DNA from: Podarcis pityusensis
Lineage: Eukaryota
Direction: 5' to 3' (one strand)
NCBI GenBank assembly: GCA_964106645.2
Contig: OZ067039.1
Length of the DNA: 64,000 nt
Positions 13,743 through 25,600 of the stretch are shown here, piece after piece (position 1 is the stretch's first letter; each line of letters begins with the position of its first letter). Under the pieces are notes generated by a model. That model searched no databases. It was not told the DNA's origin and saw nothing but the letters and a program-made list of their open reading frames with translations. Position numbers and translations under genes: made by a program.

Positions 13743-16158
13743 GTAAGTCATCCTTCTTGGTTTTTAAAGCCTTAATCCTATCCTAGAGCCTCATGGTTGA
13801 TAGCCACTGGTGTTGATTGCATCCTTTTACTCCAGTGACCTAGGTCAGAAAATCTTCCACCTTCACCTTCTTTTGTATAGGATGGAGGTATTCATTTCTG
13901 ATGTCCAGCTTGTTTTGTCCCTGACCATCCAAAACATTCGAGCACTTTGTTAAATGTTTGTTTTGAATCCAGGGGGCATTTCTCTGCTTAAGTTCACACA
14001 CTCGTCATTTGAGAAACAATTCTGTGGGTAACTAGGAGCTGGCTTGTCAAACCGGAATTCCTTAAGATGCCTCAGATAATTAGGCACCAAGCCTTAAGTG
14101 CCAGCGGAGTTTCACTTCCTGAATTTTCTAGGCTCCTTGGAAGATATCAGTCTTCTGCATCCCTTGGTTGCTGGTGGAAGGTCTTGGACGTACTTCACAC
14201 TAATCAGGCTAACGTATGTCAGCGTGTAGATAGGGAAACCTCATTCTTATCCAGGCTTGTTTGTGAGGGATGAAAATCCTTACTGGCCCACTTTATCTTT
14301 CTTAGCCTGAAACAACCAGAGTCTGGCACCTTGATCTGGGCTGCCTCATCATTATGAGCTTAGAACTGGCTGGTGTGGCTTGTGTCCCACCAAGAAAATG
14401 TGGCTTACTTGGGGCTCGGTAAGCCTTTGCTGTAGGTGTTGAACCTTAAAACAGAGTTGTCAAGCAACTGGCAGGCAGCAGCATAAGCCCAGCAGGCTGT
14501 ATTGGCATAGTGAGCCACAGGTTGTGCAGATCTAACCTGGTCTCTTGTTTAAGGAGATCAAGTCCTTCCCCGTGCCCAGGCTTCCATCTCCATATAGCCT
14601 AGGGATGGGGTACTTCTGACCCACGGACCCAATTAGGTCCTCTGGGCTTCCCTGTTTGGCCCTCAAGGCCATTTTGGCCAAGAGCCATCTGCCTTCCCTA
14701 CACCCAGGTGTGGGGCAGGTAAAATCCTGGCTCAGCCAAAAGTGGGTCTGTTGGCACTGCCAATCAGCTTTTTGGCAGTGCCTACAAAGGGCTTGGAAGA
14801 TAGTGCTTTGAAAGGGGCTTCTGAAGACTGATTGTCTTCAGGGGCCTGTTTCAAATTGCTGCACGAAGACCCCTGATAGCAAAAAAGGCCACCTGGTGTC
14901 ATTGCCAGCCAGACCCAGTACCCCACGCAGAATATAGCCCTTTCCTGCTCCTCTCGTTGTCATCATTTCTGTCTCCTAGGCTCTATGCTTTTTCCTTGAA
15001 CAGTGATTTTATGTGAAGTAGTTGTGAGGCCTCTTTTGCTGATTAGGTTCTACGTCCTTCTCCCTCACGGTAGCAGGAGTATTTTTGGCCATGGAAGCGC
15101 TCTCCCATGCACCAGCAGTCATACCGGTGTGGTGCTTGGCTATGCCATCTGTATGGGAAACAGTGCCTTGATGCCAGTAAGCCAGCTTTTCCACAACAAC
15201 TTTCTGCTCCTGTAGTGCTTGTCTTAAAACCTCGTGGACACTTTGGGGGCATTTCAAAGCAATTGTATATGCTGTCAAGTAGGGAGTTAAAAAAAAAAAA
15301 AAAAACGGCTTCTGCAGAAAGATCTATTGAGCCATCAGTTAGCCATTAATCTTTTGCCCTCTTTGCTTAAACAGCCATTGGCACACAACTCTCCCGCTCC
15401 GGCACCTGTAAAAGAACCCCCTCCCCCTTTGCAAAACGCTACCCACAGTAGTTGATTGTGCTGTCTTTGGAGGACCTCCCCAAAAGCAACTCTCCAAGAG
15501 GGCTCCAGTACAAAAGAGAGCTGTGTACGACTGGAGTGTAATTCAGTGCCATTGGGACCAAGGGTGTGGTAATGCCATGTGCTCTGGATTACAATAGGGG
15601 GCATTTTGTAAGACTAGAGGGAGACTTCTATTGCGGCTGTGCTGGCTGCAGCTCCCCTTGCCAAGAGTTGGATTATCTCCCCCCATAAACGCCACATTTA
15701 CACGCAGCTTGAGAAACCCTTTGGATTCCTTGGTGCTTGCATCACCTATTTGTTTCTCAGTCATGTTAAACCTTCCCTGGAAAATCAAAAAGGCTTAATC
15801 AGGAAACTATACGAGTGTGCCAAAATAATAAAAAAAAGACATCCAGTGCTCTTACGATGGAGGAGCAGCTGCAAATCCAGTTTCTGAAGGGTTTGGGACT
15901 CTTGGCTAAACTTTCTTTTCTAAGACACTACTCAGCACTGTCACTTTTACCCTAGTTTCTTAAGATCTGTCTGTTTTGGAATTCATTGTCATGCCATTGG
16001 TGAGGTCTTTGGGTCATTAAGTTTTTAACACTTCAGTTGCAGACTTTTCATAATATTGCTCAGCTGTCGTGGGTCATAAATCTGGGGTTTAGCATCAGAA
16101 CGCTGGAATTTAATTTGATTCATTTTTTCTTTTTGTTTTTTGTTTCTCCCCTGCGCAG

Positions 16159-16251
16159 AGCAAGATGCTGGTCTTGATGCTCTCTCTTCTGTCTTAGCCC
16201 GTCAAAAACAGATGGGGCAGGAAATTGGGAATGAGTTAGAGGAACAGAACG
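16159..16251 (+). CDS. STX8: Syntaxin-8 coding exon 6 (93 nt): (E)QDAGLDALSSVLARQKQMGQEIGNELEEQN(E), N-terminal half of the SNARE motif with the zero-layer Q
   Basis: Long pyrimidine tract with ctgcgcag| acceptor; donor G|gtaagg. Qc-SNARE heptad pattern. Confidence 0.98.
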
Positions 16252-22512: not shown

Positions 22513-23192
22513 GAGTTTTATTCTAGAGTTTGGGAGACGTAAAAATATCCTATGGTACTTTTTAAAGAACTCTAATAATGTTTTAATTGGGCCCAAGTAA
22601 ATTTTAAAGCTGAAGTTTAAAAACAAGCTGGTTTTATTCATCATTACTGTATGGCTTCTTCCTACTAAAAACATATTCAATAAGGGAAAAATAATTATTC
22701 GTCAGCTGTATCTTGTAAAACACTTTATATAGCAACTACAATTATTGACATTAGCAAGAGATTTGTTTTTGGAAATAGAAAAGCTTTTGAATGGTTCCTG
22801 TTAATAATAATTACAGGGGGAAAGGAAAGTTAGTTACTTTAAAAAAAAGGTTCCTTGCAACAAAGTCTTAATCCTCACGTTCTTCTCTGATGGTTTGTAG
22901 AAAGTCTTTTGCTTGTACCAAAAGCTTCAGTTGACACTATCAACCATTTAATTGTAGAGTTACAAATGGAGAGTTCAGATTGCTTTTTAATCCAGAAGTA
23001 AAAAAAATTAGGAGCTGAATATGCTGTGAATAATCTTTTATCTCTATTCAGGCAATGATGTTAAAAACTAGTCCTCCAGGGAATATATTATTTATGTAAA
23101 ATGGGATATTTTGTTTTAAAGTTAATTTTTTAAAAAATCTTTAACCTTTCCTGTGATATTGCAGCAATTTTCTCCATTGAGCTAATCAATTA

Positions 23193-23684
23193 CAGTGGTA
23201 CCTTGGTTCTCAAACTCCTTGGTACTCAAACAACTTGGCACCAGAACGCTGCAAACTGGAAGTAAGTGTAAACTTTTTTCAGAAGCTGAACGTACTCCAT
23301 TTTGAGTGTTACACTTCTGATTTGAGTGCCACACTTCCAATTTGAGTGTTATGCTGAGGTCTGTCTGTTTTTGCTATTTATTTTGCATTTTTGTTTTTGT
23401 AGCGTTTTTGTTTTGTTTTTGTGACTGCACGGAACCCAGTTCAGCTACTGATTGATTGATTGATTGATTGATTGTGTGATTGCAGTACATTGTTTATTGC
23501 TTTCATTTCATGGATCAGTGGTCTCATTAGATAGTAAAATTCATGTTAAATTGCTGTTTTAGGAATTGTTTTTAAAAGTCTGGAATGGATTAATCCATTT
23601 TGCATTACTTTATATGGGAAAGCACACCTTGGTTTTGGAACAGACTTCTAGAACGGGTTAAGTTTGAGAACCAAGGTGCCACTG
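23193..23684. mobile_element. Tc1/mariner (pogo/Tigger-like) MITE
   Basis: 23-bp TIRs (cagtggtaccttggttctcaaac / gtttgagaaccaaggtgccactg, 1 mismatch), TA TSDs, an internal (ATTG)n run and short ttgagtg tandem units. Confidence 0.9.
23448..23474. repeat. (TGAT)n microsatellite within the MITE
   Basis: tgattgattgattgattgattgattg. Confidence 0.9.
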
Positions 23685-23769
23685 TATATGCATTTCTAGT
23701 AAGTTCATTTATGTGTCAAAATCAAGATTTTATATGACAGCTAACGTACCATAGTGAATAGAGTGAGCT

Positions 23770-23915
23770 GGAAAGGCCTCTGGTCAAATGTTACCTCAAC
23801 CACAACTTTTCTAGATGGCCTTGGATGAGCCACTATCTCTCACCCTCAGCTCCCTATATCTGTAATATGAGGAGAATGAAAATTACGTTCCTTACAGGAT
23901 TGGTTTAAGGTTTGT
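23770..23915 (+). mobile_element. Degenerate MIR/CORE-like SINE
   Basis: ggccttggatgagccactatctctc...ctcagctccctatatctgtaatatgagg...ccttacaggattggtttaagg resembles a CORE domain. Confidence 0.5.
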
Positions 23916-24249
23916 GGAGATTGGCGGTGCAGAAGGCTTCTGGTAAAACCCTGTGTGAGATACTGGAGAGCTGTTTTCAGTCATTGTAGACAAAGCTGAA
24001 CTAGCACAGCTTCCTATTGTGTTCCTATTGTGCATCCACAGTGGTAGGAGGGGAAGTGGGTTTCATAAGTGCAAAGTGTTATGTATTATATTCTCAGAAG
24101 GACTGATTATCACCTGTCCTACTTTTCCTTCAACTTGCGCGCAGACAGTTTATAAATAGTGCATTAGAGCTGTATGCCACTAGTGATGGTGTCATTTACA
24201 TATAGCTTCCATCTGGTTCCAGTTGCTTATCTTGCTCATTCTTCACCAC

Positions 24250-24461
24250 AAAATAAAAAAAATCCTTCCAGTAGCACCTTTAAGACCAACTAAGTTAGTT
24301 CTTGGTATGAGCTTTCGTGTGCAAGCACACTTCTTCAGATATTTCGTGTGCTTGCACACGAAAGCTCATACCAAGAACTAACTTAGTTGGTCTTAAAGGT
24401 GCTACTGGAAGGATTTTTTTTATTTTGACTATGGCAGACCAACACGGCTACCTATCTGTAA
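24250..24461. mobile_element. Penelope-like element (PLE) terminal fragment in fold-back form, with 13-bp TSD
   Basis: Perfect 82-bp inverted arms (24249-24330 and 24346-24427), a PLE-type terminus cagaccaacacggctacc, and the direct repeat cattcttcaccac at 24237-24249 and 24462-24474. Confidence 0.8.
24306..24341 (-). ncRNA. Minimal type I hammerhead ribozyme motif (PLE-associated)
   Basis: The minus strand reads UAU-CUGAAGA-A-GUGUGCUUGCACAC-GAAA-GC-UC-AUA: both catalytic core boxes, stem II, a palindromic AGCU minimal helix III and a 3-bp stem I. Confidence 0.7.
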
Positions 24462-25600
24462 CATTCTTCACCACTTAAGTCTTAAACGTTACAATGATTT
24501 TAACCGCTCGTACAGCCAGACTTTGGCATCTCCCAAATGGGGAGAAGGAAGGGATGGGCAGTTGAGAGGACAGGCATTTCGCCCTTTTGCTTTCACAGCT
24601 CATGATGGCTTATTCCTTAATGAGCTTTTGTGCTCAGTTGTTAGAAACTTACACTGCTCCCTGCCAATGTATTACCTTAATTTTATTCAGACCCCATATC
24701 ATTGGTCTCCTCCTCTTTAAGTGGAAACAGTGCATGTGAGATGGGGGTGGGCCCTGGTCTTCAGTGCTTCCTCTTCCATCACCCTCTCTGCTTCACTTTG
24801 GGGAGGAGATCCTAAGTAAACCAAGGAAATTCTGGTTTTGAATTCCCACTATGATCCTGGGAAGAAATATTATCCAAAATGACCCACTGATATTTCTTTG
24901 TGGAAGAGGATTAGCCTCGCACAGATATTTATTCTGCAGCTTAGCCACTTAGCATGCTGCCAAGGGGACTGAACCCACCTTAAGGTCAAATGCTGGGTTT
25001 AATGTACTTTGCATGGGCAGAATCTGTGTTGGGGGCATTCAGTGTGCATCTGATTAGCAGATCTGTGCCAGTACAAACATGCTTGGTTTTACGTGAAGAG
25101 TGAATGGTAATAAACACTCTTAAATTCTAGCTGTTCACACCTCAATAATGAGGTAGCAATTCCCATAACCACTGAGATCGTGCTCTATTTCTAGCCCTCT
25201 GAGAGTACATACTGATAAAGCTTGAGTAGCTGTTTATCTTGCGGCGTGTGTTCTTTTTTCTATTCACAATGGTGCCGGGGCTTGAAGGGTATAAGCTACT
25301 TATACCCAACAGAAGACACACATTCATTCCAGAAGAGATGCTCTCTCTGCCTTGTAACAGTGTGGATGAGCTCACAGGAAAACTGGAAAACCCAAGCAGT
25401 GACCTTTGAGCTATTTGCTTTGCAGAGGTATGCTCAGTGAGAAAGAGCCCTGACACTGAGCTGGAATAGAAAAGTTTTTCCTATTTATCCAAGGATTTAA
25501 CGAGTTATGGAAAGGGACTATATCTTATGATGATTTGCCTTTCTAAATGCTGGATCTCATTAAAGATAGGGACCCCTTAAATATAATTTAAACCATTCCT

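Follow-up and report, generated by a model that had tools for sequence, protein, structure and literature searches.

The insertion studied here lies in a 64,000-nt stretch of Podarcis pityusensis DNA (contig OZ067039.1, assembly GCA_964106645.2; hereafter the window), deep within an intron of STX8, because the syntaxin-8 SNARE-domain exon is located about 8 kb upstream and the next STX8-like exon near 51.2 kb, about 27 kb past the insert. The two exons bear out the intronic placement made in an earlier note on this DNA, which had been written from the letters alone; a genome-wide search with Pfam SNARE models found nothing inside the window. Two arms of 82 nt each (24249-24330 and 24346-24427) are 100% complementary and separated by 15 nt, the right arm is extended by an exact 34-nt tail, and exact copies of a 13-nt direct repeat flank the unit; sequence comparison confirmed all these elements as the earlier note had described them. 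One base serves both as the end of the left duplication and as the start of the arm, so a true stagger of 12 nt is possible. The hairpin and its flanking duplication are not the product of chance, because the RNA fold has a z-score of -21.3 (equal stability in 0/100 shuffles) and no repeat longer than 8 nt arose between random flank pairs in 150 trials; the perfect 82-bp duplex that had been expected thus holds in silico. The apparent 15-nt spacer consists of 11 further nt of the left arm, which is element DNA as far as 24341, and a 4-nt insert. The features are as follows, with element positions numbered on the parent element described below.

16158..16250, plus strand: syntaxin-8 SNARE-domain exon, matching PDB 1gl2_D (E 3.5e-13)
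24237..24249: left target-site duplication, 13 nt, its last base common with the arm; single copy at the empty site
24249..24341, minus strand: inverted, tail-less arm, element +97 back to +5; 93/93 identical to the parent
24304..24341, minus strand: minimal type I hammerhead motif, read against the motif excerpted from PMC4209133 and from the fold
24342..24345, plus strand: 4-nt junction insert, mirroring the 4 bases that lie past helix II
24346..24427, plus strand: direct arm, element +16 to +97, without the hammerhead CUGA core
24428..24461, plus strand: 34-nt tail, element +98 to +131, holding the parent ORF start codon (24431) and first ten codons
24462..24474: right target-site duplication, its first base also matching the element

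By following copies that continue past the tail, a parent element was reached at 17.79 Mb on contig C9 (L151, C9:17788214-17794500), where 3,010-bp units with an open 910-aa ORF stand head to tail, forming pLTRs, with an inverted truncated copy upstream of the tandem units. The ORF combines a reverse transcriptase (RVT_1, E 4e-12, above cut-off) with a C-terminal GIY-YIG domain (E 2e-4; at 22 bits, marginally below the 22.6 cut-off) and contains the motifs YIDD, DKG, and YIG, as in endonuclease-bearing (EN+) Penelope-like elements (PLEs). The insertion unit described for EN+ PLEs comprises a pLTR, an adjacent inverted 5′-truncated copy, a one-sided tail of 30-40 bp, and a target-site duplication (Pen2a_Av, PMC3846280; scheme in PMC8557442, both in excerpt). 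The insert shares with it the head-to-head arms, a 34-nt one-sided tail overlapping the ORF start, and the target-site duplication, and TATA and Inr-like motifs are likewise present in the pLTR; it differs in retaining only ~130 transcribed nt of the pLTR and no ORF body. A CX2-5CxxC linker upstream of GIY-YIG marks Neptune and Nematis elements (PMC8557442, in excerpt). With a CX4CxxC linker at residue 770 and YIG at 822, the parent would be of Neptune type, sharing this linker with Nematis. Neptune is preferred over Nematis on our assumption that it is the vertebrate clade. The parent locus is apparently intact and a candidate active source; pairs of promoter matches 3,010 bp apart were also observed at C1:45759354 and C1:75242235.

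Element positions are counted from the predicted transcription start, an A 30 nt below the parent TATA box (thus at -30); this +1 was placed from the TATA spacing and the DNA ends, and the same bases can also be read as a splice acceptor. On this map, the hammerhead occupies +4..+42, its cut being predicted after +37, and the start codon lies at +101. The insert runs from +97 back to +5 in inverted orientation, then through the 4-nt insert, and from +16 to +131 in direct orientation, and its DNA is that of the first ~130 nt of the parent's predicted transcript. That it is a Penelope-like stump, as had been proposed from the fold-back layout, is near certain.

The locus was examined via contigs in 8 of 24 listed public runs, the 8 bearing six species labels. 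A site with a single copy of the repeat, for which the earlier note had advised looking, was found in contigs of 8/8 runs: 24236 is joined to 24462 with a 225-nt skip, 13 ambiguous letters, and one repeat copy. One run (X1) additionally has a contig across the tail/flank junction (24440-24517, no other letters, depth 13) beside its empty joint (depth 15.6). Because X1 holds both, the insertion is derived and segregating, and it is probably heterozygous if X1 is one animal; the flanks of this run are also free of other letters, and the assembly may derive from it. The filled junction was seen in this 1 of 8 runs, where contigs show presence only and the other seven may also carry the filled allele; among the listed contigs, none spans the entire insert. 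The junction contig in X1, together with the empty-site contigs in all eight runs, rules out an assembly artefact, and the expectation of a very recent and polymorphic insertion is borne out by the two alleles along with the exact arms and duplication.

In the genome, the tail motif has 4,008 exact matches and the arm motif 4,595. From the former, 97 loci were fetched, which account for 99 of the first 100 matches in the position-ordered list (that of L026 was skipped), and 96 distinct tail-bearing loci remained after one segmental duplicate was dropped; the top 30 BLAST loci, being biased to the insert's junction, were excluded from proportions, and 3/40 junction-selected loci without the exact tail motif were left out of parsing. 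Arms stand head to head in 73 of these 96 position-sampled loci and are direct only in 23, giving an estimated 3,000 head-to-head copies in the genome (73/96 of 4,008 tail matches). The short inverted form (≤260 bp) is the majority product (55/96). A target-site duplication of 12-17 nt flanks 62 of the 71 fully seen inverted copies, with a mode of 12 (33/71). The inverted arm starts at +84..+108 in 66/71, and the direct arm ends at +129..+134 in 58/71. Four loci (L023, L063, L073, and L199) have the mirror layout, with the tail on the inverted arm and a direct arm that stops in the T-tract.

Inner ends (n = 167) are clustered, with 54 at +1..+7, 13 at -4..-1, 20 at +8..+16, 3 at -60..-13, and 31 far upstream in long copies. 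The hammerhead cut site was rejected as the turning point, since just 2/167 inner ends lie around it (+35..+41). The tail-less arm reaches more than 5 nt further upstream than the direct arm in 37/73 copies, the direct arm does so in 10, and the two agree within 5 nt in 26; these arm ends come from BLAST and can be displaced by a few chance-matched bases, which leaves part of the 37 asymmetric cases borderline. For arms ending at +4, the preceding base is G in 59, C in 22, and A in 19 of the first 100 of 667 matches, which were read by eye and are not all independent loci; the parent base there is T, and the excess of G has a binomial p of about 1e-7 against an expectation of 1/3. When 30 loci were examined and the bases attributable to the partner arm or the duplication were set aside, G preceded +4 in 11 of the 14 remaining cases. 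Ends at +2 are mostly preceded by T (22/23 in the unbiased set), a bias that is only partly explained.

Between the arms of one insertion, 36/39 cores are identical, compared with 39% between insertions, and T-tract lengths match in 45/51. Such identity may reflect the copying of one RNA twice, but copying of one arm from its partner or gene conversion would account for it equally well. Among L031-L120 and L158-L164, at least two young subfamilies were distinguished (22 and 12 of 39 arm cores), and no subfamily mixing was found between the arms of any insertion in this set. Two pairs of identical insertions with the same flanks or junctions, each 10-12 kb apart (L040/L041 at C1:3.02 Mb; C1:104286884/104297061), are local segmental duplications or assembly duplicates.

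The insert is a very recent, polymorphic, non-coding stump of an abundant PLE, and its arms were probably built on site by two reverse transcriptions, one from each nicked DNA end; double priming of this kind is also the likely origin of the arms in this family. This explanation draws on the identity to an intact parent, the empty site, the fixed outer ends, the clustered inner ends, and the variable junctions. The GIY-YIG endonuclease would nick both strands 12-13 nt apart; cDNA synthesis would then begin near +131 of the element RNA from one 3′ end and near +97 from the other, the distance of 34 nt between the two priming sites corresponding to the tail. Both cDNAs would extend as far as the capped 5′ end (+1 to +4, immediately before the hammerhead) or be cut back from there. 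In the present insert, the tail-side cDNA would have stopped at +16 and, after snapping back on helix II, been extended by 4 nt; head-to-head joining of the two cDNA ends and fill-in would have followed. In L1 insertions, an extra G is a mark of cap copying (PMC11702581, in excerpt), and by this likeness the extra G at +4 points to cap copying here. A lizard PLE protein has been reported to cut and extend both strands in vitro, with two internal starts that bound the tail, and the anole enzyme is predicted to be a dimer; counting against the model, no difference in start site was seen between the strands, and the element belonged to the Poseidon clade (PMC11167929). In its available text, the same study calls the completion of PLE integration unvalidated. 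No twin- or double-priming account of PLE inversions was found in the literature searched, which did not cover subscription papers or Repbase/Dfam.

Single priming followed by fold-back, in which the cDNA (or an antisense RNA) copies itself and one arm is shortened by an endonuclease or by repair so that the tail remains, is the most serious competitor, though an unlikely one. Such a model, with antisense RNA, was proposed for rotifer Penelope (PMC3846280), and the tail has been ascribed to endonuclease resolution (PMC8557442; both sources in excerpt). The match of cores and T-tracts within insertions is what it predicts, and the snap-back inserts indicate that cDNA ends do self-prime. In 37/73 copies, however, fold-back of a tailed cDNA is excluded because the tail-less arm reaches further upstream; by the same logic the present insert is asymmetric too, each arm having sequence absent from the other. 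Junctions with loops of 0-1 nt are common, so annealing of two like 3′ ends fits better than hairpin priming, and the position of the inner ends, like the extra G, suggests the 5′ end of a sense RNA rather than the 3′ end of an antisense one.

Much less probable is the reading of the inner ends as sites at the hammerhead where reverse transcriptase stalls or RNA is processed (the helix I edge or a splice acceptor) instead of a transcript start. Helix I has its outer edge at +4, a splice acceptor can be read in the bases before +3, and in D. virilis the end of an intron maps to the 5′ end of helix I (PMC4209133, in excerpt). Against this, the cut site itself is nearly devoid of ends, no constant upstream exon precedes +3, about 1,900 arms read through the site unhindered, and the extra G at +4 and the TATA spacing favor a transcript start.

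The junctions themselves bear on whether the insert belongs to a family with fixed breakpoints. A gapped pattern for young fold-backs has 1,112 matches, the first 100 of which fall on 62 loci, giving an estimate of about 690 loci. Among those first 100 matches, the commonest junction occurs in 6/62 loci (by eye). Perfect palindromic junctions with zero loop recur; the helix II snap-back class comprises 11 junctions genome-wide, 9 of them different. The exact junction of the insert has 2 occurrences genome-wide, and at the second locus the outer ends are 1-2 nt apart from those of the insert. Each insertion therefore appears to make its own junction, in place of many copies with a shared junction and shared ends. 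A small non-autonomous fold-back family, whose members are transcribed as hairpins and retrotransposed in one piece, could draw on that second locus and on the commonest junction, but it has very little chance of being right and is already largely refuted by 2 copies among ~690 estimated fold-backs of the subfamily, the diversity of the snap-back junctions, the lack of a promoter in the unit, and the absence of clustered A-to-G scars in 105 arm pairs. The tiny non-autonomous family suggested by the earlier note is not supported. That note had also held that copies with differing breakpoints would be ordinary truncated PLE debris; the breakpoints do largely differ, but they are tightly clustered, for a mechanistic reason.

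Other copies join the RNA start to the ORF start region (about +170 to +200): 53 junctions were found at 47 loci, of which 37 are distinct by eye, and a junction is shared in 14/1,081 locus pairs. Among them, head-to-tail repeats of ~181-190-nt units occur at L152, L154, L155, C14:15597699, and C15:6274873, none of which uses the hammerhead cut site; in 5/5 of these loci, the 2-3 repeats present share one junction, and that junction changes from locus to locus. This pattern suggests that the repeats may have arisen by repeated copying of one short RNA or of a circular template. Duplication after insertion may also have produced them, although the three units of L155 differ at three sites. Double priming could be extended to these copies in a more tentative proposal, which we hold to be possible rather than probable: a PLE dimer would prime from both ends of the 12-nt stagger at two internal sites of a single capped RNA, run off the cap, and then either join the products or recopy a ~185-nt 5′ RNA. 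Recopying would be telomerase-like or would proceed on a circle not made by the ribozyme, and head-to-head joining of two cDNAs would be the commonest product. For PLEs, no reiterative or circular copying account was found in the literature searched, subscription papers not being covered. Two further arrangements were seen: a fourfold repeat of a 557-bp chimeric unit that combines the pLTR/ORF start with a piece of the ORF end (L153, C12:45672650-45674900), and a tandem array of 59-bp units derived from the tail and ORF start, beside another 59-bp array (L148-L150 and L157, C3:108157279-108157601).

The closest experimental system is Poseidon_Ac of the green anole (PMC11167929), which likewise has two internal reverse transcription starts bounding the tail, cutting and extension of both strands, and no ends at the cut site. 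It differs in clade (a CX4CxxC linker is found here) and in the hammerhead, which overlies the start codon in Poseidon_Ac and lies in the 5′ leader here; inverted copies, target-site duplication length, and joining are not explained in the available text of that study. Twin priming of L1 (PMC11702581, in excerpt) shares a second reverse transcription from the reciprocal DNA end, a discrete target-site duplication, microhomology joins, and the extra G, which in L1 marks complete 5′ ends. In contrast, L1 arms copy adjacent non-overlapping parts of one RNA, whereas a single stretch is copied into both PLE arms here, starting from two fixed internal sites and without poly(A). Non-LTR retrozymes (bioRxiv 10.64898/2026.07.22.740005, in excerpt) are also non-coding, PLE-derived, and equipped with type I hammerheads, but they form head-to-tail arrays with a complete ribozyme in each unit, while the insert is head to head with one complete motif and so falls outside that group. 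Pairs of hammerheads on opposite strands, 100-700 bp apart, are known (PMC4209133, in excerpt), and PMC12602865 provides context only. The architecture of the insert has already been published, and this analysis adds the empty allele, the cap-like G, and the tandem repeats with an insertion-specific junction. As a single insertion it is minor, one deep intronic copy among the estimated 3,000. The family, by contrast, combines intact parents with polymorphic insertions and bears on how PLEs finish integration: nicks staggered by 12 nt, a separate start site for each DNA end, cDNA synthesis that runs off the capped 5′ end, and reiterative copying are its predictions.

A minimal hammerhead in the pLTR was recognized by motif reading, its cleavage being putative. 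In the insert, the motif on the minus strand was read by eye as a CUGAAGA core with a bulged A, a long helix II, GAAA, and a palindromic AGCU; the predicted cut is between 24309 and 24308, and the outer base of helix I is absent. No hammerhead family matched in an Rfam scan of 23800-24900. The nine matches obtained there (E up to 1) lie far below gathering scores, are mostly generic miRNA hairpins, and were set aside as non-specific. The description of the unit as ribozyme-bearing in the earlier note stands for the minus strand only and fails for the STX8-sense arm. In any read-through RNA, the hammerhead would sit within the long predicted duplex. Self-cleavage in STX8 pre-mRNA is unlikely, because no ribozyme core is found in the arm read as sense, and the one complete motif lies antisense within the duplex. 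Neither a TATA box nor an ORF is present in the unit, which is most likely an inert intronic passenger.

Intronic inverted repeats are often edited, and by analogy the duplex, which the earlier note took for a likely ADAR or Dicer substrate, could be edited in STX8 pre-mRNA. Among related copies, ADAR scars were not detected: 81/105 arm pairs have no mismatch, and the polarized changes, comprising 6 and 6 of A-to-G type by strand vs. 15 of C-to-T type, show no A-to-G cluster. The polymorphic site offers a presence/absence marker, as well as an allele pair for the effect of an 82-bp duplex on the host transcript. No further family copies were found in the window besides the insert. Nearby, at 23191-23686, 26-nt inverted repeats lie 444 nt apart and enclose internal 16- and 20-nt repeats and a TGAT microsatellite; this is probably an unrelated non-autonomous DNA transposon.
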